Counted from the first letter of the stretch, positions 9,944 through 41,441 are shown. The stretch: 64,000 bases of DNA from Candidatus Omnitrophota bacterium (GCA_016206685.1 JACQRB010000014.1:9152-73151), one strand, 5' to 3'. Numbers and translations: made by a program. Notes: generated by a model from the sequence alone, not told the origin.

Positions 9944-9961
9944 CAAGGTATTCGCGTCTTG

Positions 9962-25216: not shown

Positions 25217-25290
25217 GGCCCCATCGTCTAGCCCGGCTTAGGACGCTTGGTTCTCAGCCAAGAAACACCGGTTCAAATCCGGTTGGGGCT
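25217..25290 (+). tRNA. tRNA-Glu (anticodon CUC)
   Basis: I folded the cloverleaf manually. Acceptor GGCCCCA/TGGGGCT (G1-U72 wobble), D arm GTCT..GGAC, anticodon stem CTTGG/CCAAG with loop TTCTCAG, T arm ACCGG-TTCAAAT-CCGGT. CCA is not encoded. The 5' half resembles bacterial tRNA-Glu. Confidence 0.9.
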
Positions 25291-25370
25291 GTTATCTCAT
25301 GGTGGGGTTCTCCGCCCACCTGGAAAGTGCTCGGGGCGGATCAGCCCCCAGCAAGAACAGGTGGGCTGAA

Positions 25371-25698: not shown

Positions 25699-26997
25699 AT
25701 GGAGGCGCGGCTGCGTACCACGGAGCAGGTGACGGGGCGGCTGCGGGGTCGTCTGGTGGAGCTCTTGAATGGGATGCCGGATGACCGGCGGGCGCACGTC
25801 AGTTCCCAGGTCCTCAAAGAGCGGCTGCGGCAGGAGCTGCGGGCGATGCCCGTTGACGACTACCGGGTGCTGCAGGTCTCGCGCCAGGGCGAGGAAGACC
25901 GCTTTCTCCAGAAGATCATTGATGAAACCCTGGGCTTGAGCCCGTTGGACCGGCTGCTGGTGGACCCGACCATCAGCGAGATTATGGTCAACGGACCGCA
26001 TGAGGTCTTCGTGGAGCGGGGAGGCCGGCTGCAGCGTCTTGCCAATGTCCAGTTCCGTGACACCCCGCATCTGATGGCCGTCATCGAGCGGCTCCTCAAC
26101 TCGCAGGGGCTGTCGGTGAACGAGTCCAATCAGGTGTGCGATGCCAGCCTCCCGGACGGCTCCCGCATCAACGTCATCATCCCGCCGCTGACCCTGAACG
26201 GACCCGTGGTCACCATCCGTCGCAAGCTGCGCGAATGGACCATGGAGGAGTACGTGGCGACGCTGGCGCTCAATCAGCAAGCCGCCGAGTTCCTCCAAGC
26301 CTGCGTGCGCGCCCGGGTGAACTGCATCGTCTCGGGCGGGACCTCCAGCGGCAAGACCACCCTCGTCAGCATCCTCTCGGCATTCATCCCGCCGCACGAG
26401 CGCGTGATCACCATCGAGAACGTCGCGGAGTTGACCTTGGTGAACCGCCAGCATTGGATCCGCTTGGTCTCCAAAGCCCCCAATCTCGAAGGACGCGGCG
26501 AGATCCCCCTGCGGACGTTGGTCCGCAATGCCCTGCGGATGCGCCCGGACCGCATCATCCTCGGCGAAGCGCGGGGGGGAGAGGCCCTGGATGTGGTGCA
26601 AGCCATGCATACCGGACATGAGGGCGTCATCACCGTCCTGCACGCCAACTCCCCGCAAGCCGCCCTGGAGCGGCTGGAGACCCTGATGTTGATGAGCGGA
26701 TTGGAGCTGCCGCCGCAGGCCTGCCGGATGCAGGTGACGAGCGTGGTGGACCTGGTGATCCATCTGGCGCGCTTTGCGGACGGGAGCCGCCGGATCGCGA
26801 CCATCACCCAGGTGCTCGGTGGCTCGCAGGAGGGCTTTCAATTGGAGGATCTCTGTGTCTTTGAGGTGGAAGGGTTCTCAGCGGATGGACGGATGCGCGG
26901 GGCCCTGCGCTATACGGGAGCGCGTCCAAAATTTCTGCAGAAGTTTCAGTTGAACAACGTCCCGTTGCCGGGATGGATGACACGACAGGAGGGGTGA
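25699..26997 (+). CDS. cpaF: CpaF/TadA-type secretion ATPase (paralog 1)
   Basis: Contains ISEIMVNGPHEVFVERGG, Walker A SGGTSSGKTTLVSIL, IITIENVAEL, RMRPDRIILGEARGGEALDVVQAMHTGHEG and TVLHANSP. Confidence 0.9.
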   Translation: MEARLRTTEQVTGRLRGRLVELLNGMPDDRRAHVSSQVLKERLRQELRAMPVDDYRVLQVSRQGEEDRFLQKIIDETLGLSPLDRLLVDPTISEIMVNGPHEVFVERGGRLQRLANVQFRDTPHLMAVIERLLNSQGLSVNESNQVCDASLPDGSRINVIIPPLTLNGPVVTIRRKLREWTMEEYVATLALNQQAAEFLQACVRARVNCIVSGGTSSGKTTLVSILSAFIPPHERVITIENVAELTLVNRQHWIRLVSKAPNLEGRGEIPLRTLVRNALRMRPDRIILGEARGGEALDVVQAMHTGHEGVITVLHANSPQAALERLETLMLMSGLELPPQACRMQVTSVVDLVIHLARFADGSRRIATITQVLGGSQEGFQLEDLCVFEVEGFSADGRMRGALRYTGARPKFLQKFQLNNVPLPGWMTRQEG

Positions 26998-28130: not shown

Positions 28131-29009
28131 ATGATCCCGTTGAGCGCGCCGGTCAAGAAATTCCTCCCCCTGATCTTTGCCGTGGTGATGGGGCTGCTGG
28201 CGGTCGGCTTGGTTCGTCGGTACCTCGGCCAGCAACGCCGGGCGTTGGAGCTTGAGCGTCAGCGGCTCATGGTGAATTACCAGGATCCGGTCGAGGTGGT
28301 GGTGGCGGCGAAGGACCTCCCTGCCGGGGTCACGTTGGAGCCGGCGCATTTGACGCTCGCCAAGGTCCCCGAGCGGTTCATGCAGCCCTATGCCACCCGC
28401 ATGCCGCAGCCACTGGTGGGCATGGTCACGGGCGCCCCCATCGCCGAAGGGGAGCAGGTCTTGCTCAACAAAATCCGCCGCCCGGAAGACGTTCCAACTA
28501 ATGCGACACTCTCCGATCTCACCCCCAAAGGCAAGCGGGCGGTCACCGTCTCGGTGGATATCATCACCGGCGTCGGCGGATTCATTCAGCCCGGCGATAC
28601 CGTGGACGTCCTCTGGACCTTAAAACTGCCCGCGGCAGGAGGGCAAGATGGCCAGGTGGTCACGTTGACCTTGTTCCAGGATGTCCCGATTCTCGCGGTG
28701 GCGCACGAGTTCCTGGGGCAGGGCAAGCGACCGGTGAAACCTGCTGAAGCGGAACACACGGTGACGCTCGCGTTGAGCCCGCAGGAAACCGCCTTTCTGC
28801 TCTTTGCGAGGGAGCAGGGACGGATTCAGCTCAGCCTGCGCTCCCAGTTGGATGGCGATGCGCAGGTGACCGTCGCCCCGGCGAGCATCAACACGCTGAT
28901 GGAGCAACTCCTGGGCAGTCAAGCCGGGGCGCCGACGAAAGCCCCTCGTCAGGTCGAAGTCTACAAGGGGCTCAAGCGGGACGTCGTGGTGCTCTCGGAA
29001 CAGCAATGA
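28131..29009 (+). CDS. cpaB: Flp pilus assembly protein CpaB/RcpC
   Basis: An N-terminal TM is followed by a SAF-like segment (VVVAAKDLPAGVTLEPAHLTL..VP) and an RcpC-like C-terminal domain. Confidence 0.8.
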   Translation: MIPLSAPVKKFLPLIFAVVMGLLAVGLVRRYLGQQRRALELERQRLMVNYQDPVEVVVAAKDLPAGVTLEPAHLTLAKVPERFMQPYATRMPQPLVGMVTGAPIAEGEQVLLNKIRRPEDVPTNATLSDLTPKGKRAVTVSVDIITGVGGFIQPGDTVDVLWTLKLPAAGGQDGQVVTLTLFQDVPILAVAHEFLGQGKRPVKPAEAEHTVTLALSPQETAFLLFAREQGRIQLSLRSQLDGDAQVTVAPASINTLMEQLLGSQAGAPTKAPRQVEVYKGLKRDVVVLSEQQ

Positions 29010-30634
29010 TGAGGAAGCGCTTCGCGCTGCTGGGGCTGATGCTTGCCGGGCTGTGGGTCGCCTCGGCGTGGGCGCAGCCGGTTTCCGCCGAGCGCGACGC
29101 CACGGCATCCTCGCCGGCCGCCAGCCAGGATCAGAGCGTCCCTGCCATCATCTTCCTTGAGCCCAGGCAAATCCGCAGCATGGCGGTGGAGGACGTCAAA
29201 CGGATTGCGGTGGGCGATCCGGACATCGTGGATGTGACGATCGTCTCCTCCAACGAAGTCCTCCTGCACGCCAAGGCGGCCGGCACGACGAACCTCATCC
29301 TGTGGGATCATCAGGGGCAGCGTGTCACCAACGTCGAGGTCGTGGACCGGCTGCCGGAAGCCCTTGAAGCCCAACTGCGCCAGCTCCTCACCCAGCTCAA
29401 CGTGCCGGGGGTGCAGGTGAAGCGGGAACACGGCAAGCTCTTTCTCATCGGGCAAGTCTTCAGGAAAGAGGAGTTCGAGCGTCTGGAGCAGATGCTCTCC
29501 GCCTATCCCGGCGTCACAAACCTGGCGCAAATCTCCGAGTCGGCCCCTGCGCCCTCGCTGCTGCCGCCGTTGGTGAAATTGTCGGTTCAAGTGATCGAGA
29601 TTAACCGCTCGGACCTGGAGCGGTTGGGCGTGCGCTGGTCGGAGTCCGTGGCATTCACCGAGCCGGAGGCGACCGACCGGACCGCGCACGACGCGCTCTT
29701 GCGGTGGGGCACCTCGCTCACGCGGGGCAGCACCTCCTGGACGCTGAACGCCCTGGTCAAACAGAACCGGGCGCGCATCCTTGCCGAACCGAAGCTCGTC
29801 ACCGCCAACGGCAAGCAAGCCTCCTCCTTCATCGGGGTGGAAGTGCCGGTGATCACGGCGACGACCTTCAGCACCACGACCTCGGCGGTCAGCACCAGCA
29901 TCGAGTTCCGCCAGACCGGGGTGTTGTTGAAGATGACGCCGAATATCCACACCAGCGACCATAAGATCACGACGGCCATCGAGGCCGAGGTCTCAAGCGT
30001 GGATAACTCGGTGGCGCTGAGCGTGCCGGTCGGCAACCAGACGGTGGCGGTGCCGGGCTTTTCGGTGCGCAAAGCGAATACGGAAGTGACCACCGCCTCA
30101 GGCGAGACCGTCATGATCGCCGGCTTGTTGCAGACCGAGGACACCAAGGATGTCAGCCAGGTGCCGGGCTTGGGCGGCATGCCGGTGGTGGGTCGTCTCT
30201 TCCGCTCACCGGAAACCGAGTCCACGCAGCGGGAACTGGTCATCGCGGTCACGCCGGAACTCCTCGGCGAGGAGGAGGTCAGTCCCGAGAAGGCGCTGAC
30301 GGTGGAGGAAGCGCTGTCGGTTGCGGAAAACGCCGCCTCGGCGGAGAACCCGCGGTTGCGCTACGTGCTGCAGGTCGAGGAGCGCATCGCCAAGTCCCTG
30401 CGGTATCCGACCCGCGAAAAGGACCTCAATGCGAGCGGGCAGGTGAAGCTGCGCGTCCACCTGTTGCGGGACGGCACCCTCAAGCAAGCGGTCATCTCCG
30501 AGTCCTCCGGGTTTGAGGCCTTTGACCAGGCTGCCCTCAACGCGGCACGGAGCCAATCCCCCTTCCCGCCGTTTCCCTCCGACCTGACCCAAGGGGAGCT
30601 GTGGCTTGAGCTGCCGGTCCTCTTTCGTCCCTAG
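29006..30634 (+). CDS. cpaC: Secretin (CpaC/RcpA-like) with a C-terminal TonB-C-like domain
   Basis: A signal peptide precedes the secretin core (ARILAEPKLVTANGKQASSFIGVEVP...VPGFSVRKANTEVTTASGETVMIAGLL...VPGLGGMPVVGRLFRS...ELVIAVTPELL). The last roughly 95 aa (YPTREKDLNASGQVKLRVHLLRDGTLKQAVISESSGFEAFDQAALNAAR..SPFPPFP) resemble TonB_C. Confidence 0.8.
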   Translation: MMRKRFALLGLMLAGLWVASAWAQPVSAERDATASSPAASQDQSVPAIIFLEPRQIRSMAVEDVKRIAVGDPDIVDVTIVSSNEVLLHAKAAGTTNLILWDHQGQRVTNVEVVDRLPEALEAQLRQLLTQLNVPGVQVKREHGKLFLIGQVFRKEEFERLEQMLSAYPGVTNLAQISESAPAPSLLPPLVKLSVQVIEINRSDLERLGVRWSESVAFTEPEATDRTAHDALLRWGTSLTRGSTSWTLNALVKQNRARILAEPKLVTANGKQASSFIGVEVPVITATTFSTTTSAVSTSIEFRQTGVLLKMTPNIHTSDHKITTAIEAEVSSVDNSVALSVPVGNQTVAVPGFSVRKANTEVTTASGETVMIAGLLQTEDTKDVSQVPGLGGMPVVGRLFRSPETESTQRELVIAVTPELLGEEEVSPEKALTVEEALSVAENAASAENPRLRYVLQVEERIAKSLRYPTREKDLNASGQVKLRVHLLRDGTLKQAVISESSGFEAFDQAALNAARSQSPFPPFPSDLTQGELWLELPVLFRP

Positions 30635-30723
30635 CCAGGCCTCCTCCGGTTTCTCCCCGGTCTTTATTGTTTTTTCAGCGATTTTGAGGCATACTTTGTC
30701 ATGATAACAGTTTTTTGAATCCG

Positions 30724-32754
30724 ATGCAGGTGAAACCACAGGTCATCTCGTGTTTCAGCACCAAAGGGGGGGTCGGCAAGACGCTCATCGTGACGAATCT
30801 TGCCACGACCCTGAGCCGCCATCAGTTCCGCAAGACGGCGCTCATCAGTCTCGCCCCGATCGAGCATGACGTCACCGCGATGCTCGATTCCTCGAACGTC
30901 CATCGGGTCACCGAGCTCCTCACGCCCGCCTCGTTGCCCGGCGTGCTGGCCACGCTGCGACAGGCCTACAGCTTCGTGGTGATTGACGCCGGCTCGGTGT
31001 TCAGCGAGCTGGCGCTGGCGGCGTTTGAGCACTCCAATCTCCTCCTCCTCGTCACCACGCCGGACGTGATTGCCATCCGCCATGCCGTCAAATCTGCGGA
31101 AGCCCTGGAAGCCATGCGGGTGCCGCTGCGCATGGTCAAAGCCGTGATCAACCGGGCGGAGAGCCGGGGGAACTTCCGCTCCGCCGAAGTCAGGGCGCAC
31201 CTGCCCATCGAGGTCGTCGCCGAGATCCCCTCGGAGGGGCGGTTGGTCGGGCTGTCCCTGAATCAGGGGCGCCCGCTCGTGCTGGCCAACGAGCGCGGGC
31301 GGATTACCGATGCGTTCCTGCGGTTTGGGCGGTTCCTCGTCGAGCACCCCGAGCTGTTTGTGGAGCACGTCGAGTTGGACCGCTCCAAGCGGCCCTCCAT
31401 GCCGATCCCTCAGCCGGTGTCGCTGGCCAGCCTGGCGCATCAAGCCGGGCTCCCCGACGCCCACGAGCCGGAGGACCCCGTCGTGGCGCTGAAGCGCCGG
31501 GTCCATGCCCGCTTGCTGGAAAAATTCGACTTGAAGCGGCTCGACACCCAAACCGCCAATAACCCCACGGTGGTGGGCCAACTGCGGGAACAGACGGGCA
31601 AGGCCGCCCTGGAGCTCCTCGTCGAAGAGGGAGGGTTCGTGCCGGGCGCGGATGCGCGGGAGCAGCTCGTCAAAGAAATCGTGGATGAGGCGCTGGGATT
31701 GGGGCCCCTGGAAGACCTGATCGCCGACGACGAGGTCTCCGACATCCTGGTCAACGGCAAGGACCAGATCTACATCGAGAAGCGCGGCAAGCTCCACCTG
31801 ACCGACAAGCGGTTCGTCTCCAACGACCAGGTGCTGACCGTCATCGAGCGCATCATCGCCCCCCTGGGGCGGCGCATTGACGAGTCCACCCCCATGGTGG
31901 ACGCCCGCTTGCCCGACGGGTCCCGTGTCAATGCGATTATTCAGCCGCTGTCTCTCCGCGGCCCGATGCTCTCCATCCGGAAGTTCCGGACCGAGCGCTT
32001 CTCCATGGAGGACCTCATCCGTCTGGGGACCCTCACCCCGGCGATGGCGCAGTTCCTCACCGTGTGCGTGAAAGCGCGCAAGAACATCATCGTGTCCGGC
32101 GGGACCGGCTCCGGCAAGACGACGACGTTGAATGTGCTCTCCGGCTGTATCCCGCCCGGTGAGCGCATCGTGACGATTGAGGACGCCGCGGAATTGCGCC
32201 TCCACCAGGAGCACTGGGTGCCGCTGGAAGCGCGTCCCCCGAACATCGAGGGCCGGGGGATGATCACGATCCGCCAGTTGTTCCGCAACGCCCTGCGCAT
32301 GCGCCCGGACCGCATCATCATCGGCGAGTGTCGTGGGGATGAGACGCTCGACATGCTCCAAGCCATGAATACGGGGCACGACGGCTCGCTCACGACGCTC
32401 CATGCCAACTCGCCGCAGGATGTCATCTCGCGGCTGGACTCCCTCATCCTGATGAGCAACGTGGAACTCCCCGTGAGGGCCGTGCGGGAGCAAATCGTCT
32501 CGGCGATCCACCTCATCGTGCACACCGCCCGCCTGTCGGACGGCTCCCGCAAGGTCACCCATATCACCGAGATCACGGGGATGGATGAGCATACCGGTGT
32601 GACGTTCGGGGATCTGTTCCTGTTCCACCAGCGCGGCGTCGGGGCTGGGAACGAGGTCCTTGGCGAGTTCAAGCCGGCGGGGCGGCTGCCCTCGTTCCTG
32701 GATGAGCTGCGGGCCAAGGGGCTTGCGCTGGATGAGGCGATGTTTCACCCGTAG
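30724..32754 (+). CDS. Fusion of a CpaE/TadZ-like ParA/MinD ATPase domain with a CpaF/TadA secretion ATPase (paralog 2)
   Basis: The N-terminus has a deviant Walker A (VISCFSTKGGVGKTLIVTNLA..VVIDAG). The C-terminal half is CpaF (VSDILVNGKDQIYIEKRG, SGGTGSGKTTTLNVL, RMRPDRIIIGECRGDETLDMLQAMNTGHDGSLTTLHANSP). The start is TTG 30715 or ATG 30724. Confidence 0.85.
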   Translation: MQVKPQVISCFSTKGGVGKTLIVTNLATTLSRHQFRKTALISLAPIEHDVTAMLDSSNVHRVTELLTPASLPGVLATLRQAYSFVVIDAGSVFSELALAAFEHSNLLLLVTTPDVIAIRHAVKSAEALEAMRVPLRMVKAVINRAESRGNFRSAEVRAHLPIEVVAEIPSEGRLVGLSLNQGRPLVLANERGRITDAFLRFGRFLVEHPELFVEHVELDRSKRPSMPIPQPVSLASLAHQAGLPDAHEPEDPVVALKRRVHARLLEKFDLKRLDTQTANNPTVVGQLREQTGKAALELLVEEGGFVPGADAREQLVKEIVDEALGLGPLEDLIADDEVSDILVNGKDQIYIEKRGKLHLTDKRFVSNDQVLTVIERIIAPLGRRIDESTPMVDARLPDGSRVNAIIQPLSLRGPMLSIRKFRTERFSMEDLIRLGTLTPAMAQFLTVCVKARKNIIVSGGTGSGKTTTLNVLSGCIPPGERIVTIEDAAELRLHQEHWVPLEARPPNIEGRGMITIRQLFRNALRMRPDRIIIGECRGDETLDMLQAMNTGHDGSLTTLHANSPQDVISRLDSLILMSNVELPVRAVREQIVSAIHLIVHTARLSDGSRKVTHITEITGMDEHTGVTFGDLFLFHQRGVGAGNEVLGEFKPAGRLPSFLDELRAKGLALDEAMFHP

Positions 32755-32755
32755 G

Positions 32756-33106
32756 ATGGCCGTGCTCATGAATGTGACGCGCCACCACGTCGTGGCGCAG
32801 CGCGCGCAGGCGGCCAGAGGGCTCCTGGCACGCATGGTCGGCTTGCTGGGTCGTGACGCCTTGCCGGCGGGGGAGGCGATGGTGTTTCCCTGGTGCAACT
32901 CCATCCATACCGTGGGGATGCGCTTTCCCATTGATGCGATCTTTGTTGATCAGCAGTGGCAGGTGGTGTCGTGGCGATCCGGCGTGCGTCCGTGGAGGGT
33001 GGTGTGGCCGGTGCGGGGAGCCTGGGGAGTGGTCGAGATGGCCCAGGGGACCCTGGATCGCCTGGGGCTGAAGGTCGGTGATCAGCTCCATCTAGCCGAG
33101 TCGTAA
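32756..33106 (+). CDS. DUF192 (COG1430) family protein
   Basis: About 116 aa containing GLLGRDALPAGEAMVFPWCNSIHTVGMRFPIDAIFVD and a final GVVEM..G block typical of DUF192. Confidence 0.7.
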   Translation: MAVLMNVTRHHVVAQRAQAARGLLARMVGLLGRDALPAGEAMVFPWCNSIHTVGMRFPIDAIFVDQQWQVVSWRSGVRPWRVVWPVRGAWGVVEMAQGTLDRLGLKVGDQLHLAES

Positions 33107-33156
33107 CACGAAGCGGTGGAAGGGGAAAGATGAGAGATTTTGGGCTTGAGTTTGGC

Positions 33157-33186
33157 TTGACAAGCGCGCCCGGCGTTCACTATACT
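33157..33186 (+). promoter_or_regulatory. Consensus sigma70-type promoter of the pilin operon
   Basis: TTGACA (33157-62), an 18-nt spacer, then TATACT (33181-86). It lies in a 260-nt intergenic region directly upstream of the riboswitch. Confidence 0.6.
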
Positions 33187-33194
33187 TGTAAGTA

Positions 33195-33318
33195 CCGTGA
33201 GGCCGAGAAAGGCAAACTCGCCGAAAGGCGGGGTCGCAAAGCTTCGGGTCTTCACTCTCTGAACACACGCTGTGGGAGGCGTGTGGCGTTCTCGGGGAGC
33301 AGATAGCCGGGCTGCCGA
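33195..33318 (+). promoter_or_regulatory. c-di-GMP-I (GEMM-I) riboswitch aptamer
   Basis: AGGCAAACUCGCCGAAAGGCGGGGUCGCAAAGCUUCGGG aligns almost position-for-position with the Vibrio Vc2 aptamer core GGGCAAACCAUUCGAAAGAGUGGGACGCAAAGCCUCCGG (GNRA loop, GCAAAGC bulge). A second helix ends ...CGGGGAGCAGAUAGCCGGGCUGCC, compared with CCGGUAGGUAGCGGGGUUACC in Vc2. Confidence 0.78.
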
Positions 33319-33338
33319 ATAGGCGGACCGGTTTTTTA
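33307..33338 (+). terminator. Intrinsic terminator forming the riboswitch expression platform
   Basis: The stem ccgggctgcc / ggcggaccgg (one mismatch, one G-U) is followed by TTTTTT. Its 5' arm overlaps the 3' end of the aptamer. Confidence 0.65.
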
Positions 33339-33365
33339 TTTGGAGATAATCTAAAAAGATATAAA

Positions 33366-33566
33366 ATGGCTCTTCATATGATTGTATTAGTTATAGTAAA
33401 TGTCGTTAGGCGGAGCAGGACAAGCGGGCAAGCGATGATCGAGTACGCGATCCTCTTCGCGGTGATCGCGGTGCTCACCGTCATCGGCGTGACGACCTTC
33501 GATGACTCGGTCAAGACCGCCTTGCAAGGCTTCTTCAATGCGGCAGCCAACAAGATCGCCAAATAA
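33366..33566 (+). CDS. flp: Flp-family pilin (short, classical type), paralog 1
   Basis: Leader ...RRSRTSG then QAMIEYAILFAVIAVLTVIG. This is the G/xxxxEY prepilin motif with a hydrophobic helix and a short tail. The exact start is uncertain because the 5' region is AT-rich. Confidence 0.75.
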   Translation: MALHMIVLVIVNVVRRSRTSGQAMIEYAILFAVIAVLTVIGVTTFDDSVKTALQGFFNAAANKIAK

Positions 33567-33567
33567 A

Positions 33568-33635
33568 ATGCGGAATGCGGAATGCGGAATGCGGAATGTC
33601 AATCGCCACGCCGCACGCCGCACTCCGCACTCCGC
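33568..33635. repeat. Heptamer tandem-repeat hairpin module between pilin 1 and pilin 2
   Basis: atgcgga x4 (33568-33595), a 12-nt spacer, then acgccgc x2 plus actccgc x2 (33608-33635). Its first ATG is the in-frame candidate start of pilin 2. Confidence 0.9.
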
Positions 33636-33801
33636 ACTTGGAAAGGGACAGGCGGTGCTGGAATACGCCGTCCTGATTGGGATCGTCGCCGCGGCGCTCA
33701 TCGCCATGCAGCTCTACGTCCGGCGATCCATCCAGGCGAACCTCAAGGTGCTGGAAGACCAGGTGAACGCGGAAGCGGTGAAACCTGTACTCGTCCAGTA
33801 G
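33568..33801 (+). CDS. Flp-like pilin, MQxYxxR subfamily, paralog 2
   Basis: ...GKG then QAVLEYAVLIGIVAAALIAMQLYVRRSIQANLKVLEDQV. The leader peptide is encoded by the heptamer module, and the start could be 33568 or 33589. Confidence 0.7.
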   Translation: MRNAECGMRNVNRHAARRTPHSALGKGQAVLEYAVLIGIVAAALIAMQLYVRRSIQANLKVLEDQVNAEAVKPVLVQ

Positions 33802-33876
33802 ATTAGTACGCAGAACTAACCGCGGTCTTCGCAGTCGCTCTGCGGTTTCCGCGGTTGCAAAGGGAGGGGAGACAGC

Positions 33877-34092
33877 ATGAAGAAGAGGCGACTGGTTACT
33901 GGTTACTGGTCACTGGTCACTACCAGAGGGCAGAGCACGCTGGAATACATCCTGGTGCTGGCTGCCATTATTGCCGCAATCGCGATCGCGGCGGGCACGC
34001 TCATTAAACCGGCGGTGACCAAGACGATGAACGACACCAAAACGGTGATCGAGGACGCGACAGGGAAGCTCAAGGACGGGCTGAGCCTGTGA
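33877..34092 (+). CDS. Flp-family pilin (short type), paralog 3
   Basis: SD gggagggg precedes the start. The leader MKKRRLVTGYWSLVTTRG is followed by QSTLEYILVLAAIIAAIAIAAG. The leader contains a 4x heptamer tract (33892-33926). Confidence 0.8.
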   Translation: MKKRRLVTGYWSLVTTRGQSTLEYILVLAAIIAAIAIAAGTLIKPAVTKTMNDTKTVIEDATGKLKDGLSL

Positions 34093-34127
34093 AGGGCGCG
34101 AGCCCGACGGGAGGAGGTGAGCAGACG

Positions 34128-34490
34128 ATGACGCGCAGGGGCATGGGAGGACAGTCCACGGCGGAGTACGTCATCCTCATCAGCGTGGTGCTGGCGGCGA
34201 CGGTCGCCATGCAGATGTACGTCAAGCGCGGATTGCAGGGCAAGGTCAAGGACGTGACCGATAACGTGGGCTTTGGCCTGAAGGACGCCGGCTTCACGGC
34301 GCTGACCAACCAGTACGAGCCTTACTATGCGGTCTCGGACTTCAACGTCAGCCAGAAGCAGAGCACCAAGACCAGCGTGACGGACGGCTACAAGGTGAGC
34401 CGCGTGACCGATCTCGATGAGACGAAGCGGACCGGGGTGTCCAAGCAAGAGGTGGACCTCAGCAAAGACAATCAGTGGCTCGCGCAGTAA
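34128..34490 (+). CDS. Flp-like pilin with extended C-terminal domain, paralog 4
   Basis: SD GGAGGAGG precedes the start. MTRRGMGG is followed by QSTAEYVILISVVLAATVAMQMYVKRGLQGKVKDV and a tail of about 80 aa. Confidence 0.8.
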   Translation: MTRRGMGGQSTAEYVILISVVLAATVAMQMYVKRGLQGKVKDVTDNVGFGLKDAGFTALTNQYEPYYAVSDFNVSQKQSTKTSVTDGYKVSRVTDLDETKRTGVSKQEVDLSKDNQWLAQ

Positions 34491-34497
34491 CACGCAC

Positions 34498-34881
34498 ATG
34501 GCGAAGGGGGTGAAGGTGACAATGAGCAGGCTGACAGGGCGACGCGGGCCCCGTAGGACGTTTGTCCAACGGGGCGGGCAGAGCACGGTGGAGCTCGCCG
34601 TGCTGGTTGCCGTGATTACGGGGGCGCTCCTGGCGATGCAGATTTACGTCAAGCGCGGCGCGATGGGCAAGCTCCGGGACGCCGCGGACCAAGCCGGCGA
34701 GCAATTCACGCCGTTGAACACCACCTCCGAATTCACGGTCACCAGGAACAGCGCCAGGACGGAAAAGACCGAGGCGACCGGACTGACGACGGCGACCCTC
34801 ACGCAAGATGACCAAACCCGCACGGGAGCGGAACAGGTGACCACGCGGCTCGATGAGGAAAAGCTCTTCAAGCAACCATAA
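34498..34881 (+). CDS. Flp-like pilin with extended C-terminal domain, paralog 5
   Basis: ...FVQRGG is followed by QSTVELAVLVAVITGALLAMQIYVKRGAMGKLRDAADQAGEQF. The alternative start is ATG 34522. Confidence 0.8.
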   Translation: MAKGVKVTMSRLTGRRGPRRTFVQRGGQSTVELAVLVAVITGALLAMQIYVKRGAMGKLRDAADQAGEQFTPLNTTSEFTVTRNSARTEKTEATGLTTATLTQDDQTRTGAEQVTTRLDEEKLFKQP

Positions 34882-35299
34882 GCGCGTTGCCGCTTGCGCC
34901 GCGCAGTCCGTGACGGAATACGCCGTCCTGATCGGGCTGCTGACCGCCGCGGTGCTCGGGATGCAGCTCTACCTCAAGCGCGGCATCCAGGCCGGCGTCA
35001 AGGTGGCGGCGGACCAGATGAGCCCGCACGCCAACGACCCGACCGGAGAGAAGGCGCAGGTTGATGGCATGCGCTACGAGTCCGGCGAACGGAGCCAGGC
35101 CGTCGTCGCCACGGGCAGCGTCTTGGAGCGGAAGTCGGCGGCGCGGACGCTGCGCCAGCGGACCGCCAACATGACCGCCACCACAGGCGGCGGGGTGCAG
35201 CGGCAGATTGCCACGGATACCGCCGCCACGTCGGGCGTCCTGCCGGAAGGGGGAAGTGGGGTGGCGTCTCGCTCGGAGGTGGTGGTGGATGTGCGCTAA
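34853..35299 (+). CDS. Flp-like pilin with extended C-terminal domain, paralog 6
   Basis: ...ACAA is followed by QSVTEYAVLIGLLTAAVLGMQLYLKRGIQAGVKVAADQM. Ala replaces Gly at the -1 position. It overlaps the previous gene by 29 nt. Confidence 0.7.
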   Translation: MRKSSSSNHKRVAACAAQSVTEYAVLIGLLTAAVLGMQLYLKRGIQAGVKVAADQMSPHANDPTGEKAQVDGMRYESGERSQAVVATGSVLERKSAARTLRQRTANMTATTGGGVQRQIATDTAATSGVLPEGGSGVASRSEVVVDVR

Positions 35300-35636
35300 G
35301 CGCGGGCAAAGTCTGGTGGAATACGCCGTCTCCCTGGCGGTCATCATCGCCGCGCTCCTCGCCGTCCAGATCTACCTCAAACGGGGCGTGGCGGGCAAGC
35401 TGCGCACCGCCGCGGATTCCATCGGGGAGCAGTACGCCCCCCGGCAGACCACCTCCAGCCTCATCTTCCAGACCCACAGCGACACCGTCACCGAGTCCAA
35501 GCTGGAAAAGGACAAACTCATCGGGGGCGGCAAGAAGGCGGATGTCATGGTCACCACCACGACGATCAACGATGAGACGACGCAACGCACCGGCACGGAA
35601 ACCGTGGACTCCCTCGGCACCGACCTCTGGGACTAA
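35289..35636 (+). CDS. Flp-like pilin with extended C-terminal domain, paralog 7
   Basis: SD ggaggtgg precedes the start. MCAKRG is followed by QSLVEYAVSLAVIIAALLAVQIYLKRGVAGKLRTAADSIGEQY. Confidence 0.8.
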   Translation: MCAKRGQSLVEYAVSLAVIIAALLAVQIYLKRGVAGKLRTAADSIGEQYAPRQTTSSLIFQTHSDTVTESKLEKDKLIGGGKKADVMVTTTTINDETTQRTGTETVDSLGTDLWD

Positions 35637-35637
35637 C

Positions 35638-36660
35638 ATGACCAGCGACCAGCGACCAAATCACTTGGTCTCATGTCTCATGTCTCATGTCTCATGTCTT
35701 CGTGCCAACAAGGGTCAAGCCCTCCTTGAACTCGCCATCTTCGGCTCGCTCTTCATCCTGGTCCTCGGCGTGCTCCTGAACTATGGGCTCAACGCCGACT
35801 ACAGCCAGCGCGCCAAGATGGAAGCCTTTCGGCAAGCCCTCGCCCTGTCATCCGATTCGAACATCACCGGAGGCGGCTCGTACGCCCTGGCGAAAGATCG
35901 CTACATCCCCAACCCCTCCAACCCCTTCGCCCTCGGCTCGGACATTCCGGTGTCTGAGTCAGGCAGCGTCATTCGTGATTTCCGGTTGGACGAAACCGCG
36001 GATACGGTCAGTGAGCTGCCGCGCGTCAACATCACGGTGAACGGAGAGCCGTTTGATTGCCCCAGCGCGGGCACCGGCTGCACGACAGCCGGCTTTCGCA
36101 CCGAGCCGCTGACCGGCTCCCTGGACCGCTACCAGGAGGTCTACGGCAGCTCCAACGTCAACGGCGGCGGCGACACCGTCACGGTCATTGATTCCTGCGA
36201 GGGCGAGGTCGTCAGCTTTGAGAGCTGCGTGCGCCAGGCGCGGATGATCGTGGATTCCGACGCCTGCACCGCCGAGTGCAAGCGGGGGAAGTTCGAGGGC
36301 AGCGACGACTGCGCCTCGACCTGTGCTGCGCCCATGACCGTGCCGTGGTACGCCCAGGGCGCCGTCAAAGATACAAGCGGCAAATGGACGTTTCCGAACT
36401 TGAATACGCTCTTTACCGGCATCACGACGACGGGACTGCAGCGCGGCTCGAGCCGCCACACCACGATGGCAAGCACCTTGCACAAGCAGGAAACCGCCTC
36501 AGCCGTCAGCACCACCGACTCGGTCAACTGGCGCGATGACGTCACCCGCAAAGTCGTGTATAAACCACTTGGCGACACAAGCGGAACCCCCGTGACGCAG
36601 TCGGTCACCACCACGCCTAAAGATGAGCAGAACAGCACGACCTGGACAACCCCCTGGTAA
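35638..36660 (+). CDS. TadE-like pseudopilin with Cys-rich C-terminal domain
   Basis: ...RANKG is followed by QALLELAIFGSLFILVLGVLLNYGLNADYSQRAKMEAFRQA, a TadE/G-like N-terminus. The 5' end is built from two heptamer tracts (35640-35702). The C-terminal half has at least 8 Cys. Confidence 0.7.
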   Translation: MTSDQRPNHLVSCLMSHVSCLRANKGQALLELAIFGSLFILVLGVLLNYGLNADYSQRAKMEAFRQALALSSDSNITGGGSYALAKDRYIPNPSNPFALGSDIPVSESGSVIRDFRLDETADTVSELPRVNITVNGEPFDCPSAGTGCTTAGFRTEPLTGSLDRYQEVYGSSNVNGGGDTVTVIDSCEGEVVSFESCVRQARMIVDSDACTAECKRGKFEGSDDCASTCAAPMTVPWYAQGAVKDTSGKWTFPNLNTLFTGITTTGLQRGSSRHTTMASTLHKQETASAVSTTDSVNWRDDVTRKVVYKPLGDTSGTPVTQSVTTTPKDEQNSTTWTTPW

Positions 36661-36664
36661 CCCA

Positions 36665-36925
36665 ATGCGGAACTTAGCTCGGACACTCCGCACTCCACAC
36701 TCCGCACTCCGCATGCGGAGGGGTCAAGCATCGCTGGAAATGACCGTCGCGCTCATCGGGGCGCTTCTTTTGTTGTTCGGTAGCTTAAAAGTTTTCTTAT
36801 GGATCAATGAACGGCTGGTGAAGCGACAGGTCAGCTATGAAGACACGCGGGTAGCCGCTGGGAGTCAGGATTCCCTGAAGCTGTGGGAGGAACCCACGGA
36901 GCCGCTCAAGATCTTCAATGAGTGA
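36665..36925 (+). CDS. Small TadE-like pseudopilin
   Basis: ...MRRG is followed by QASLEMTVALIGALLLLFGSLKVFLWINERL. The leader is encoded by the heptamer module at 36665-36719. The start is 36665 or 36713. Confidence 0.65.
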   Translation: MRNLARTLRTPHSALRMRRGQASLEMTVALIGALLLLFGSLKVFLWINERLVKRQVSYEDTRVAAGSQDSLKLWEEPTEPLKIFNE

Positions 36926-36931
36926 CGCAAC

Positions 36932-39040
36932 ATGATCCGTCTTCTCAGGAAGCTGCTTTCTGTTGCGAATCTGAGGCGCAAGCGGGCGCAGGCGCGAGGA
37001 CAGATTGCGACCGTCCTCCTGCTGGCGATCGTCGCGGTGTTGCTCTTCACCCTCATGACTGCCAACCTCGGGCAGGTGTCGCTCGTCGCCACCAACGCCG
37101 CCAACGCCTCCGACTCCGCCAGCCTCTATCTTGCCAGCCAGCTCTCGACCAAGTCCCACCAGTTGTGGGAATCGCTGGGGCATAAGACCCAGAAGTGCCA
37201 GAAGAAAGGCTTCTTCGGATCGCTCTTTGCCATCATCTTTGCCATCGTCATGATCGTCCTTCAGCAGTATGAGTTCCTCCCGGTAGCGTTCGCCCCTACC
37301 ACTACAGGTGCTATTGCCGCAGCGTTTGGCTCTACCACAGCTCCAATAGTCGCTGCGGGTGCCATAGGAGGTTTCGTCGGTGGCGCAATTGGAGGTGCCG
37401 TCACCGGCACCAATCCGTTGATCGGCGCCTTGCAAGGCGCCTTGATTGGCGCCTCGATTGGCTTTGGGGTAGGCTCAGCGCAGAACCTTGCTGCCAGTTT
37501 TGCGAGTTCCGCAGGAACGAAAGCAGGGGCTGCCGCTGCGGCCGTCGGAACAGGGAGCGAGTTTGAGATCGCGTTGGCCTTCGCGAAGGAGTTTAACGCA
37601 TTCATGGCCTCCTACGCTGCACCCTTTGCCATCGGTGGTGGCGCCTTCTCTGCCGGCACGAGCCTCTTCAACTCGGTCATGTCGGATCTGGCGAAGTCGG
37701 ATGCCATCGCGGCGGCTGCCAAAGCCTTGAGCGGGCTGCCGGAGACATTGCGCATCCAGCAGGGCGTCATCTTCCGCGCGCTGTCCGAGACCGTGGATGA
37801 CCCGACGAAAGTCCAGGATGTCCATGACGCGGATGGCGACGGTGACACCCAGGAGCAGATTCCCCGATTCCTCTCATGGTGGGATCAACGGGTGAAAGCC
37901 TTAAAAGACAACATCCCCACGATGGCGGACACCGTCAGCCAGTTTGTCAACGGTCCGATGACGACCTTTCACGACGCCGCGGAGGCGACCTATAAGAAAC
38001 CTCCTGATCCAGGCATGTTCGCCAGGCAGGAGGTGGAGGGCAGCGGGATGGAGGGCAGCGACGGAGAGCTGGTGGACCTGGCGCGCCGTCTTGAAAATGC
38101 CGGCCACCCGATCTCCTTCTGGGCGCCCGGACCGACCGCGGCGCAGATTGACGACTCCGAGTGCGAGGAATCCGCCTGCGACGCAGCCCCCCTGCCCCCC
38201 GGCTGGGATGAGGTGGACGAGACCATCGAGCGCCTCCAACAGCTTGCAGGGACCGGCGGAGCAACCGACGAAGACAAAGGCATGATTGACAACCTCAAAG
38301 ATCAGACCGTCACCCACAACACCGCGACCTGGGAGTCCTGGTCCAAGCTGTTCTATGACCCCGATCCCCAGGAGACCGATGACTTCTATGACGAAGCTGC
38401 TGTGCTAGTCAACGGCGGCGTCTTCGAAGGGGAGTCGTTCAAGGGGATCAAAGCGTGGAAGGAGGAGCTGCAGAGCGTGAAGGTGTCGCTGCCCCAATGC
38501 CAGCCCCAGTACGACGAGGAGGACGACCAGCTCATCGGCGTGTCCAACCCGCCCTGCCAGGATCTCGCGGGGAGCCTCCTGGGTGAGCCCTTTGCGACGT
38601 CCGACGCGGATTTCGCCGACGAGTTCGTCCCTGTGGAAACCAAGCTGAATCAACTGGTTTCGGACATCGAGAGCTTCCGCCCGGCGTCCAAAGATTTCGT
38701 GACCACCATGACAACGCTCTCCGAGGGGATCACGACGGACTTCGGTGGCAAGAACCCCGCCGGCTACGCGTGGAGCGATTCGCGCGGGGACCTGTCGGTT
38801 GAGGTCGAGGTGGGACCCTTCAAGGTCGCCCGGACGAAGAAGAAATCCAGCTTCAAGAAAATCTGCATCGTCCTGAAAGACTACGCCGACGACGGCTCGC
38901 GAAGCTGGGTGAAGATCACCCGGCAGGACCCGGTGCGGGATGCGGGGTTCTGGCGCTGGAACGACTACGGCGGCAAGACGGCCAAGCTCTCGCGCTCGGC
39001 GTACAGTTTTAACTTCGTGAAGATTGCCGGGACGCAGTGA
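36932..39040 (+). CDS. TadG-like large pseudopilin / pilus-associated protein (702 aa)
   Basis: The N-terminus RGQIATVLLLAIVAVLLFTLMTANLGQVSLVATNAANASDSASL resembles the TadG N-terminal (Tad_N) motif. A Gly/Ala-rich hydrophobic block and then an acidic globular region follow. Confidence 0.65.
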   Translation: MIRLLRKLLSVANLRRKRAQARGQIATVLLLAIVAVLLFTLMTANLGQVSLVATNAANASDSASLYLASQLSTKSHQLWESLGHKTQKCQKKGFFGSLFAIIFAIVMIVLQQYEFLPVAFAPTTTGAIAAAFGSTTAPIVAAGAIGGFVGGAIGGAVTGTNPLIGALQGALIGASIGFGVGSAQNLAASFASSAGTKAGAAAAAVGTGSEFEIALAFAKEFNAFMASYAAPFAIGGGAFSAGTSLFNSVMSDLAKSDAIAAAAKALSGLPETLRIQQGVIFRALSETVDDPTKVQDVHDADGDGDTQEQIPRFLSWWDQRVKALKDNIPTMADTVSQFVNGPMTTFHDAAEATYKKPPDPGMFARQEVEGSGMEGSDGELVDLARRLENAGHPISFWAPGPTAAQIDDSECEESACDAAPLPPGWDEVDETIERLQQLAGTGGATDEDKGMIDNLKDQTVTHNTATWESWSKLFYDPDPQETDDFYDEAAVLVNGGVFEGESFKGIKAWKEELQSVKVSLPQCQPQYDEEDDQLIGVSNPPCQDLAGSLLGEPFATSDADFADEFVPVETKLNQLVSDIESFRPASKDFVTTMTTLSEGITTDFGGKNPAGYAWSDSRGDLSVEVEVGPFKVARTKKKSSFKKICIVLKDYADDGSRSWVKITRQDPVRDAGFWRWNDYGGKTAKLSRSAYSFNFVKIAGTQ

Positions 39041-39042
39041 CC

Positions 39043-39483
39043 ATGCGCATAGATTCGCCTGAGCTCAAGTATATCGCAGTGACGCTGCTCGTCGTGGTCG
39101 CGCTGATTGGCGCGCTGCGCCTGACCAGGAGCGACGTCGCCCGCTGCCGGGAGGTCTTCCAGGACTTGGCGCGGGGAAAGCGCTCGGTGCAGCAGCGCAT
39201 TGACTGGGGGCAGCTCCACGCCATAGGGGTCAACGTGGGCGCCACCTATGCGGGTCTGCCGGATGAAGGGGCGAGGGTGACCTATCGGCGGCTCTTCGTC
39301 GAGCATTTCTCCAAGGGATTCCTGCAGACGGGGGCGAGGCTCGATGAGTTTGTGCGCTGGCGCGTCCACGAGCGGACACCCGAGCAGGTGGTGGTCGCGG
39401 CGGACTATCCGGCGAAGCAGAAGACGCTGCTGCTGACGATGGCTGTTTCAGGGAAGAAGCTCGAGGGCATCCAATGGCAATGA
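39043..39483 (+). CDS. Hypothetical single-TM protein in the pilus operon
   Basis: ORF with N-terminal TM (YIAVTLLVVVALIGAL), tightly packed between the TadG-like gene and a pilin gene. I recognise no family. Confidence 0.5.
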   Translation: MRIDSPELKYIAVTLLVVVALIGALRLTRSDVARCREVFQDLARGKRSVQQRIDWGQLHAIGVNVGATYAGLPDEGARVTYRRLFVEHFSKGFLQTGARLDEFVRWRVHERTPEQVVVAADYPAKQKTLLLTMAVSGKKLEGIQWQ

Positions 39484-39662
39484 CCCAGCGGGGGGGTCAA
39501 ACGGCAGTGGAATACGCCGTCTTGATCGTGGTCGTCGTGGCGGCGCTGCTGGCGATGGCGGTGTACGCCAAGCGCGCGCTGACGGGGAAATGGCGCGAGG
39601 TCGGCGACACCTTCGGCTACGGCCGCCAGTATGAACCGGGTGCAACAGCAGTGAGTCAGTGA
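39474..39662 (+). CDS. Flp-like pilin, paralog 8
   Basis: MAMTQRGG is followed by QTAVEYAVLIVVVVAALLAMAVYAKRALTGKWREVGDTFGYGRQY. Confidence 0.8.
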   Translation: MAMTQRGGQTAVEYAVLIVVVVAALLAMAVYAKRALTGKWREVGDTFGYGRQYEPGATAVSQ

Positions 39663-40543
39663 TGATAAACCTGATGCTCGAGTGGCTGATCTATCTCTTG
39701 GCGATGGGGGCGGTCATCTGCGCCGCGTTCATCGCGTATCCGCTCATCATGCGCGCCCTGACCCGTTCCGCCAGCCGGATTGAGCAGTTCCAGCAGGGCA
39801 AGGTGGAGCAAGCCACCAAGGCGCTGGATGACATCTTTGTCGAGGTCAAGCCCCGGTGGCTGGCGCTCGCCTACGGCGTGGGACCCGTGACGGCGGGACT
39901 GCTGGTGTTTGTCCTGACGGACAACATGCTCTTTGCGCTGCTCGGGGCGGTGGTCGGCGTGATTCTTCCGGACGTCTGGGTCAGGCAGACGCGCGCGATC
40001 CGCAAGCGCACCTTCCGCGCGCAGCTCGTGGATGCGCTCTTCATCCTCTCCAGCAGCCTGCGGGCCGGGCTCTCCCTGACGCAGGCGTTTGAGCAGTTGG
40101 AATCGGAGATGAGCCCGCCGGCATCGCAGGAGTTCGGCCTGATGATGAAAGCCCACCGGCTCGGGCGCACGCTGGACGAATCGCTCCAGCGGTTGAACCA
40201 GCGCATCCCCTGTGAGGAGCTGGAGCTGATGACGACCGCGCTGCTCGTCGCGCGGGAAACCGGCGGCGATGTCACCGGCATCATCGGCCAGCTCATCGCC
40301 ACCATCCGGGAGCGCAAGAAGCTCAGCGAGAAGGTGGTCACCCTGACCCTGCAGGGACGGCTGCAGGCCTACATCATGAGCTCGGTGCCGCTGGCGTTCT
40401 TTTTCTTCGTGCGCGCCTTCAACCCGCGGTACTTCGAGCTGCTCCTTGTCAGCGAGACTGGCAAGACCATCCTGGCAACGGCAATCGGGTTGTGGCTGGT
40501 GGGGATCTTCCTCCTGTTCCGGTTCAGCCGAGCGGAGGTCTGA
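39659..40543 (+). CDS. tadB: TadB-type inner-membrane platform protein (T2SSF domain)
   Basis: TM segments flank a cytoplasmic T2SSF-like domain (FRAQLVDALFILSSSLRAGLSLTQAFEQL...). Confidence 0.8.
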   Translation: MMINLMLEWLIYLLAMGAVICAAFIAYPLIMRALTRSASRIEQFQQGKVEQATKALDDIFVEVKPRWLALAYGVGPVTAGLLVFVLTDNMLFALLGAVVGVILPDVWVRQTRAIRKRTFRAQLVDALFILSSSLRAGLSLTQAFEQLESEMSPPASQEFGLMMKAHRLGRTLDESLQRLNQRIPCEELELMTTALLVARETGGDVTGIIGQLIATIRERKKLSEKVVTLTLQGRLQAYIMSSVPLAFFFFVRAFNPRYFELLLVSETGKTILATAIGLWLVGIFLLFRFSRAEV

Positions 40544-40547
40544 GGCG

Positions 40548-41441
40548 ATGGTGACGGTGATCTACCTGGCGATGTTCCTGTGTGTGGCGGGGGTGGCGGT
40601 GGCGTTGCTGCCGCAGCCGCAGGTGGATTTTCCCCGGTTGACCGAAGGACAGTTGCCGCCCAGCCGCCCGCTGGAGGCCCCGTTGATGGGCGCCCGCCGC
40701 GGATTCCTGCGGGCCCTCCTGTCGCTCGTGGGGCGGTTGGTGCCGTGGATTCGAAAGCGCGAGGAACGCCGGGGGCAGCTCGTGGATACCGCCTCGAACC
40801 TCACGACGGAAGAGTTTGAAGGCATCAAGGTCCTCGCGGCAGGCGGCGGAGCGTTGCTGGCGATGGTGATTCTTCAGGAGCTCCGAGAGGTGACGCCGCT
40901 GTGGGTGATGGCGGCGGCGGTCCTGGGGTTCGTGATGCCGGATGCCTGGCTGCGCGCCCGGCTGGCGCGGCGGCACAAGGCGATGATGAGGCTGCTGCCG
41001 GAGATCATTGACATCCTGGCGTTGTGCGTGGGCGCGGGGCTGGATTTTCTCGGGGCGCTCAACAAAGTCGTGGCGGTCAAGGATTGGAAGCGCGAGCCGC
41101 TGAGCGAGGAGCTCGCTGCGGTCTTACAGGACATCAAGCTGGGCAAGCGGCGGGGGGAAGCCTTGCGGGCGATGGCCAAGCGGGTCAAGATGCCCGAGAT
41201 GACGTCCTTTGTCCGCACGCTGATCCAGGCGGACCGCATGGGCACCCCCATCGGGGAAGCCCTGGCCATTCATGCCGAGGACCTGCGGTTCCAGCGGTTC
41301 ACCAAAGCCGAGCGGCTGGCGCTCAAAGCGCCTATCAAGATTCTCATCCCGCTCATCTTCTGCATCCTGCCTAGCGTGGCGTTGATCGTGGGCGCGCCCA
41401 TCTTCATGCAGTTCGTGCAGCAAAACCCCTTCGGGAGATGA
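40548..41441 (+). CDS. tadC: TadC-type inner-membrane platform protein (T2SSF domain)
   Basis: Contains LPEIIDILALCVGAGLDFLGALNKVV...GKRRGEALRAMAKRV and a C-terminal TM pair. The start is ATG 40548. Confidence 0.8.
   Translation: MVTVIYLAMFLCVAGVAVALLPQPQVDFPRLTEGQLPPSRPLEAPLMGARRGFLRALLSLVGRLVPWIRKREERRGQLVDTASNLTTEEFEGIKVLAAGGGALLAMVILQELREVTPLWVMAAAVLGFVMPDAWLRARLARRHKAMMRLLPEIIDILALCVGAGLDFLGALNKVVAVKDWKREPLSEELAAVLQDIKLGKRRGEALRAMAKRVKMPEMTSFVRTLIQADRMGTPIGEALAIHAEDLRFQRFTKAERLALKAPIKILIPLIFCILPSVALIVGAPIFMQFVQQNPFGR

Follow-up and report, generated by a model that had tools for sequence, protein, structure and literature searches.

The stretch of DNA considered here, 64,000 nucleotides (nt) from a Candidatus Omnitrophota bacterium (GCA_016206685.1 JACQRB010000014.1:9152-73151; hereafter "the window," with positions counted from its first letter), contains a pilus locus of the Tad/Flp type in which a short leader stands between a block of machinery genes and an array of pilin genes. 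From its 5' end, the leader comprises a sigma-70-type promoter (33157-33186), an aptamer of the class I c-di-GMP (cyclic diguanosine monophosphate) type, known as c-di-GMP-I or "GEMM-I" (33202-33320), an intrinsic terminator that shares sequence with the aptamer (33307-33337), and an AT-rich spacer (33338-33377; about 36-41% GC in a region of about 62% GC) that extends from the terminator to the first pilin start, all on the plus strand. An earlier note on this DNA had proposed that the leader is a c-di-GMP-I riboswitch through which high c-di-GMP allows transcription of the pilin genes. A family match, a canonical ligand pocket, the energetics of folding, a design conserved in relatives and covariation in the terminator, all of them computational, speak for that proposal. 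The probability that the leader is a transcriptional ON riboswitch of this class ahead of the pilin genes can be put at roughly 0.8, the response to the ligand being a prediction.

The promoter is as the earlier note had described it, with a -35 element TTGACA (33157-33162), an 18-nt spacer and a -10 element TATACT (33181-33186), and it matches the consensus at 11 of 12 positions. It is the sole such site in a 4.6-kb scan (32600-37200), for which shuffled sequences gave 0.7, and it predicts a transcription start near 33190-33194, about 10 nt 5' of the aptamer. The same TTGACA-N18-TATACT (or TACACT) arrangement is found 5' of the aptamer on the related contigs L097, L209, L211, L208 and L084, and no second promoter passed the promoter scan in the AT-rich spacer 3' of the terminator. 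The few nucleotides between the predicted start and the aptamer differ among relatives. Four of them carry the motif GGUCCUUGACAAC (GGGACCCUGACAAC in L086) followed by a small hairpin, at approximately 4395-4410 in L082, 2760-2775 in L209, 940-955 in L211 and 2570-2585 in L086; the window is without this motif, and its GUACCGUGAGG runs directly into the aptamer.

Assignment of the aptamer relies on cmscan against Rfam 15 at the gathering threshold, with only the best family of each clan reported. One match to the c-di-GMP-I clan (CL00126) was obtained, on the plus strand at 33202-33320, to family RF03167 (c-di-GMP-I-GGC), where it scores 69.3 bits (gathering score 59; E 2.5e-14); it covers the full model (1-80) and includes zero non-canonical pairs. 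One further family of the clan passed its own gathering score and was masked by clan competition. This is most probably RF01051 (gathering score 35), since for 22 of 23 clan hits in the metagenome loci introduced below a second clan family was likewise above threshold. The core motifs occur in the order GGCAAAC, stem, GAAA, stem, GGUCGCAAAGC, exactly as first read. The family assignment that the earlier note attached to them, GEMM-I as represented by RF01051, holds for the clan and for the G/A/C composition of the pocket and does not hold for the top Rfam family, which is RF03167.

In outline, the aptamer consists of two hairpins closed by a short P1 helix (33202-33205 with 33316-33320), with an A-rich junction after a conserved CGC. 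The P2 hairpin (33212-33237) is capped by a GAAA loop (33223-33226), the junction A33238-A33239 lies within a segment that reads CGC-AAA-GC, in keeping with the original GEMM description in which the linker after CGC is virtually always AAA, and P3 spans 33240-33313. The minimum free energy (MFE) structure of the isolated aptamer forms both P2 and P3 (-50.0 kcal/mol, z -2.3). Much of P3 is an extension of about 50 nt (33251-33301, plus strand) that is an insert relative to both Rfam models; it is predicted to form a rod of two stacked helices ending in a GUGGGA loop, and it occupies the site where a CUAAG/UAUG tetraloop receptor is usually found. P3 reads GGGUCUUCAC... and contains no CUA[AC] motif, so that the aptamer, with its GAAA loop, is not of the tetraloop-plus-receptor type I; at the usual receptor site, P3 has an asymmetric internal loop with UCA facing C.

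For comparison, metagenome contigs from JGI were scanned with the core pattern, either purine being allowed at the position of A47 (see below for this numbering), which gave at least 120 loci. Over the 126 aptamers among the matches listed, P3 spans form a continuous series between 15 nt and more than 100 nt, and because of this continuity the extension in the window, where the span is 59, is best viewed as the tail of a continuum. The possibility that the P3 extension or the leader belongs to another Rfam family was set aside, as only chance-level hits were obtained.

The terminator is built on the 3' strand of this aptamer, as had been proposed. Its 5' arm, CCGGGCUGCC (33307-33316), is followed by the loop GAAUA, the 3' arm GGCGGACCGG (33322-33331) and a tract of six uridines (U6, 33332-33337), all on the plus strand. 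The 5' arm is wholly aptamer sequence, being made up of the 3' strand of P3, of G33314 and C33315 in the junction, and of the base that opens the 3' strand of P1. Because the entire arm is also aptamer, the two folds are mutually exclusive. For a transcript that ends at P1, the MFE structure consists of P2 and P3 (-49.7 kcal/mol). For the full leader it carries the terminator, at -65.2 kcal/mol versus -56.1 kcal/mol with the aptamer junction enforced, and as the terminator fold is energetically favored, termination would be the default without ligand.

The terminator also appears in the full-leader MFE structures of L082, L086 and L097. In an alignment of seven lineages over the 11 pairs of the terminator, 94.8% of the cells are paired, versus 18-48% when the partners are slid by 1-3 columns. 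Compensatory GC/AU changes occur at two terminator pairs, one of which involves the junction base adjoining the equivalent of C92, and a third position alternates between U-A and U-G. AT-rich spacers likewise follow the terminator in L082, L086, L097, L209 and L211. The MFE structure of the window also offered a candidate OFF-state helix between the 5' leader sequence GUGAGGCCGAG and the 5' strand of P3; it is absent from the relatives' folds and was rejected.

The bases expected to contact the ligand can be identified from the well studied Vc2 aptamer, in which c-di-GMP is contacted by G20, A47 and C92 (PMC4744006; PMC6140456). One guanine of the ligand is recognized at its Hoogsteen edge by G20, a position at which riboswitches for cyclic GMP-AMP (cGAMP) have adenine, and the other is Watson-Crick paired with C92 (PMC6140456). 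The corresponding bases are G12, A39 and C104 in Vc1 and G11, A38 and C81 in Bc1, and an interhelical C-G pair is reported to be universally conserved in GEMM riboswitches (PMC4744006). In the cmscan alignment, the equivalents in the window, all on the plus strand, are G33211 (model position 10), A33238 (model position 37, where the RF03167 consensus has G) and C33315 (model position 75), the last of which pairs with G33323 in the terminator fold. The 27-nt spacing from G33211 to A33238 is identical to that in Vc2 (20/47), Vc1 (12/39) and Bc1 (11/38), and C33235 (in the P2 bulge GUC) and G33306 (in the P3 bulge AG) are aligned at the positions of the interhelical pair. By this alignment the pocket is G/A/C, the canonical set, and not G/G/C. 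The presence of G33211, not A, argues for c-di-GMP over cGAMP as the ligand, the adenine at the G20 equivalent that typifies the cGAMP (GEMM-Ib) class being absent.

How widely this arrangement is shared was assessed with contigs of relatives found through homologues of the DUF192 protein (55-70% identity), which came from JGI, ENA and Logan samples, and, for L097, through the pattern scan. All six lineages that are readable 3' of DUF192 carry the aptamer, namely the window, L082/83, L086/87, L084/85, L209 and L211, the count leaving aside L208, L210 and two further contigs, one with P0037 and one with the second P0007 copy. The aptamers of the window, L082/83 and L086/87 score about 69.5 bits. 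Those of L211 (46.7 bits), L209 (39.2 bits) and L084/85 (24 bits) fall below the gathering score because of inserts. These are of about 52-55 nt and lie in P2 in L209 (aptamer at 2798-2930) and L211 (978-1116), whereas in L084 (4545-4708) an insert of similar size lies in the strand between P2 and P3. These relatives keep the core motifs and the overlapping terminator, and the contig of L097 shows the same design. In each relative, a hairpin on the aptamer's own 3' strand is followed by a U-tract and an AT-rich spacer, and then by Flp-like genes where the contig reaches that far. In L209, the P2 insert contains a receptor-like hairpin (CUAAG...UAUGG) that L211 lacks and that may be due to chance. 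With its core intact, the clade accommodates insertions of 40-55 nt in three locations, namely P3, P2 and the strand that joins P2 to P3; these insertions, a reason that such members miss Rfam thresholds, provide natural data on the limits of the fold.

Given this architecture, we infer binding of c-di-GMP, the direction of the response and the extent of read-through along the following lines. Polymerase would start about 10 nt 5' of the aptamer, and P2 and P3 would fold first. When c-di-GMP is present, it would be held by G33211, A33238 and C33315 and would close the short P1; the ligand-locked P3 and P1 would then hide the strand CCGGGCUGCC, and polymerase would enter the Flp pilin genes. 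When it is not, GGCGGACCGG would displace P3 and P1 to form the 10-pair hairpin, which with U6 would stop transcription at about 33337. The affinity of Vc2 for c-di-GMP is in the picomolar range (PMC6140456), and a similar affinity here could hold P3 and P1 until polymerase has passed. High c-di-GMP would in this way license the pilin array and, by their position, TadG, TadB and TadC, and possibly the giant ORF.

Several observations weigh against an ON riboswitch for c-di-GMP and should be set out together. P1 amounts to only about three pairs. The P3 extension has no homologue, so that its predicted fold rests on thermodynamics and has no support from covariation. The GAAA loop is present, yet no recognizable 11-nt receptor accompanies it, a combination also seen in 18 of the 37 GAAA-type aptamers in the sample. 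U33234, in the P2 bulge, stands alone: of 123 distinct aptamers, 97 carry A at this site and 25 carry G, and folding may be weakened or tuned by the U. RF03167, the top-scoring Rfam model, represents a variant family for which we know of no established natural ligand. In the genome collection, which was scanned with the CpaE-CpaF fusion and does not include the window's own genome among its species representatives, the nearest Omnitrophota loci are L002 and L003 (46-49% identical). Neither has the riboswitch, so that the switch is confined to a subclade. Finally, no gene for a diguanylate cyclase, a phosphodiesterase or a PilZ protein was found among the dcw and Tad genes of the window or in the visible part of the giant ORF (the ORFs at 13.3-23.5 kb being left out), and c-di-GMP metabolism in this bacterium is assumed from reports on other Omnitrophota.

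Among the alternatives that draw on these observations, the one that survives best, if as an unlikely explanation, is that the aptamer has decayed and no longer binds a ligand, leaving the hairpin and U6 as a constitutive attenuator or as the terminator of the upstream operon, with the pilins expressed from residual read-through. The greater stability of the terminator fold, by about 9 kcal/mol, would be expected of such a relic, as would U33234, the missing receptor, the large inserts here and in relatives, and the lack of c-di-GMP enzymes in the window. A strong promoter placed directly before a constitutive terminator makes little sense, however, yet this arrangement is kept in relatives. 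Moreover, six to seven lineages keep the contact bases and core motifs in spite of the inserts of 40-55 nt at three places, which argues for selection on the aptamer core, and all P1, P2 and P3 pairs of the window are canonical.

A marginally weaker alternative is that the element is a specificity variant of the GEMM-I fold, whether of the RF03167 family or another, that responds to a different signaling molecule by the same terminator logic. Its appeal derives from RF03167 being the top Rfam family, with a score above its gathering threshold, from the absence of the RF01051 receptor module, and from the singular U33234. Comparison of the two consensus lines as printed by cmscan clarifies what the label means. 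The cores of RF01051 and RF03167 differ at one base (ACGC-A-AAgC versus ACGC-G-AAgC), the window reading CGC-A-AAGC where RF03167 has CGC-G-AAgC; the G at position 37 that would mark the "GGC" variant, a name that, judging from the printed consensus, appears to refer to G/G/C at the three contact positions, is thus not present. At the A47 equivalent, A is found in the window, in all relatives and in all 126 of the pattern matches listed, which include them, even though either purine was allowed there. The models also differ in the second hairpin, where RF01051 carries a receptor module (CUAAgg...cuAuG) and RF03167 has a variable loop; RF03167 in addition models P1.

When Rfam was applied to 20 of the metagenome loci, among them L130, L156, L119 and L095, an A47 aptamer was assigned to RF03167 in 16, with scores of 61-80 bits, many of them above that of the window. 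Judged by these sequences, a best hit to RF03167 in Rfam 15 marks a receptor-less aptamer, not an altered pocket, and because canonical-pocket aptamers without a receptor also score best on RF03167, the label is misleading for the window. The G at the G20 position speaks, in turn, against cGAMP. With a canonical pocket and a family model that captures canonical receptor-less aptamers, the c-di-GMP-I assignment of the earlier note stands. A practical consequence is that automated annotation would mislabel the element in the window and many others as specificity variants.

Least probable is another mode of action, such as an OFF switch, a translational switch, or control of RNA stability or processing, for even though class I switches of both signs and with dual action on transcription and translation are known and a very stable hairpin after the first pilin gene hints at other RNA-level controls in the operon, the 5' arm of the terminator lies wholly in the aptamer, so that stabilization of the aptamer by a ligand can work only against the terminator, and the first start codon stands about 30-40 nt past the U-tract in an unstructured AT-rich spacer with no predicted pairing to the aptamer.

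If the leader is an ON riboswitch for c-di-GMP, the extent of its control depends on the genes around it. On the 5' side of the promoter lie genes for a CpaF-like ATPase, a Rotamase_2 isomerase, CpaB/RcpC, a secretin, a CpaE-CpaF fusion and a DUF192 protein. The DUF192 protein shows 100% identity with an NCBI protein of a metagenome-assembled genome labeled "Candidatus Omnitrophica bacterium," and the CpaB of the window also occurs in SRR12113385. The stand-alone CpaF-like protein (25699-26997) is the second ATPase of the locus, the main one being the fusion of CpaE (ParA-like) and CpaF (30715-32754), and the secretin, of CpaC type, carries a fused TonB C-terminal domain (29006-30634). All genes described on the 3' side are on the plus strand. 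Flp pilin 1 (33366-33566; a prepilin whose processing motif is G|QAMIEY), with its start at ATG 33366 or 33378, matches Flp_Fap with an E value of 2.3e-6 and a score of 27.7 bits, which is below the curated Pfam cut-off of 32.2. Flp pilin 2 (33568-33801; G|QAVLEY) has a leader peptide encoded by a heptamer-repeat hairpin described below, and Flp pilin 3 (33877-34092; G|QSTLEY), whose Class_IIIsignal match (E 1.3e-3) is below the curated cut-off, is assigned mainly from its motif. Six further genes (34089-36925) encode proteins of 100-372 residues with an N-terminal G|Q-x-x-x-E-[YLM] motif that may be pseudopilins or TadE-like; none of the six has Pfam hits.

Beyond these, the locus continues with a TadG-like protein (36932-39040; a weak Tad domain, E 4e-4), a 148-residue ORF (39037-39483), and TadB-like (39659-40543; T2SSF E 2.8e-16) and TadC-like (40446-41441; T2SSF E 2.4e-17) platform proteins. 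The giant ORF (41454-64000), of 7,515 codons or more, starts 13 nt past the stop codon of the TadC-like gene and continues beyond the end of the window. Its domains include Peptidase_C39 (residues 243-330), LysM, HATPase_c (residues 4336-4441) and two HTH_17 stretches (near residue 3864), and no GGDEF domain was found in the 7,515 residues of its visible part.

The earlier note had also held that the upstream machinery is independent of the switch. This is correct for the ATPases, CpaB and the secretin, all 5' of the promoter, and is not for the TadB-, TadC- and TadG-like proteins and the pseudopilin-like genes, which are downstream on the same strand. Even for the upstream block a connection is likely. 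The terminator scan found none between DUF192 and the switch, so that read-through from the upstream operon would meet the same gate, and the switch hairpin is probably also the conditional end of the machinery operon. On the other side, promoter and terminator scans found nothing above shuffled expectation from the switch to the giant ORF, and the genes in between overlap or are closely spaced. Cotranscription from the switch into the giant ORF is possible, as gene order and strand suggest. That the switch gates a unit of more than 30 kb, with pilins, pseudopilins, TadG, TadB, TadC and the giant gene, is nevertheless a tentative proposal, against which the odds lie.

Expression within such a unit need not be uniform. 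Immediately after the Flp pilin 1 stop is a hairpin (33569-33636) in which four heptamer repeats, (GCGGAAU)x4, face (GCACUCC)x3; its MFE is -42.7 kcal/mol (z -5.6), it has no U-tract, and it encodes the leader of Flp pilin 2, which reads ...RRTPHSALGKG|Q. Related heptamer repeats occur at 326-347, 23927-23979, 36698-36712 and 42129-42143 (12 matches, with 0.4 expected); two of these four lie within ORFs and contribute a similar peptide, TPHSA(L/R)R, to the product. The hairpin looks like a repetitive extragenic palindromic (REP) element; it could lower the expression of everything 3' of the first pilin, and it may set the ratio of the first pilin to the downstream genes. Elsewhere in the window are a complete dcw cluster (338-13281; mraW, ftsI, murE, murF, mraY, murD, ftsW, murG, murC and murB) and, just upstream of the Tad locus, a tRNA gene (25217-25291; 54.3 bits).

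The metagenome sample offers a broader view of environmental GEMM-I aptamers. In many contigs, a receptor-less aptamer stands about 150 nt 5' of a gene for a type IV pilin or pseudopilin (G|FTL[IV]EL[LM][VI]V), among them L108, L132, L133, L140, L162, L173, L181, L182, L184, L189 and L206, and direct c-di-GMP riboswitch control of pilin genes seems to be common in environmental bacteria. Other contigs show variations in architecture. In L151, L134, L178 and L094, aptamers unrelated to that of the window are followed by a second copy of the 3' strand, so that GAUCGCCGGGCUxCCGAAG occurs twice, with the terminator on the second copy; this copy may be an alternative-strand expression platform. Two GEMM-I aptamers are also found on single contigs, in tandem in L058 and L130 (871-945 and 947-1008) and 200-500 nt apart elsewhere, including L097 (1045-1121 and 1356-1453, minus strand) and L124 (96-176 and 653-735). 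Relatives of the CpaE-CpaF ATPase of the window are encoded in L016, which is also among the contigs with paired aptamers, and in L058, both of them Firmicutes loci.

With respect to what is already understood, the type of switch is known. Class I aptamers that overlap terminators, and the link of such aptamers to pilus genes, have been on record since the discovery of the motif; the original GEMM paper reported terminators that overlap this hairpin in 78 of 322 instances and listed pilus genes, cpaA among them, as targets. Bc1, an experimentally studied class I switch, provides a precedent for the logic proposed here, as its terminator opens upon c-di-GMP binding. In the window, the switch is a handle on when uncultured, putatively predatory or host-dependent bacteria deploy their pili and perhaps their giant proteins. 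Should the gating of more than 30 kb prove true, this Omnitrophota lineage would use c-di-GMP as its signal to deploy the entire apparatus for attachment or predation.

Among known systems, the closest to the aptamer of the window are the GEMM-I riboswitches of RF01051, represented by Vc2 of Vibrio cholerae and Bc1 of Bacillus thuringiensis. They have in common the three-helix aptamer, the contact bases and the bases of the interhelical C-G pair, together with the strings AAAGGCAAAC, a GNRA-capped P2, CGCAAAGC and AGCCGGGCUGCCGAA. The window differs from them in having no CUAAG/UAUG module, in its P3 extension of about 50 nt, in the U that replaces the purine of the P2 bulge, and in its uncultured Omnitrophota host. 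With RF03167 it shares a receptor-less P3 and the modeled P1 pairs, and differs in having A, versus the consensus G, at position 37.

Two other riboswitches resemble this one in what they control. The class II c-di-GMP riboswitch of Clostridioides difficile, the subject of work by Bordeleau and colleagues in 2015, also lies 5' of a pilin gene, pilA1. It is placed immediately before that major pilin gene, with pilus production turned on at high c-di-GMP. Its aptamer is of the c-di-GMP-II class, however, its pilus is type IVa-like where that of the window is of the Tad/Flp type, and its host belongs to another phylum. The GEMM-Ib cGAMP riboswitches of Geobacter have the same fold and are also tied to genes for pili and extracellular appendages (PMC6140456), but carry A at the G20 equivalent in contrast to G33211 in the window.

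The locus itself has a counterpart in the preprint of West-Roberts et al. (2023), which describes a conserved locus resembling type II secretion systems (T2SS) and Tad systems 5' of the giant genes of Omnitrophota. Its content agrees with that of the window, as both include a secretin, RcpC/CpaB, GspE-type ATPases, Rotamase_2, small genes with class III signal peptides, two GspF/T2SSF proteins and a giant gene. The same authors report PilZ genes downstream of giant genes and GGDEF domains in many giant proteins. If the gating of the giant gene is true, then the riboswitch and these reported proteins would together complete a circuit of c-di-GMP signaling around the giant gene, perhaps one with positive feedback. 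The word "riboswitch" is absent from this preprint and from the other Omnitrophota papers checked, and those that deal with the locus speak of no RNA element. What the window adds is a direct, predicted second-messenger input inside the conserved pilus and secretion locus that precedes Omnitrophota giant genes, in that an aptamer and terminator split the machinery block from the pilins, the platform genes and the giant gene.

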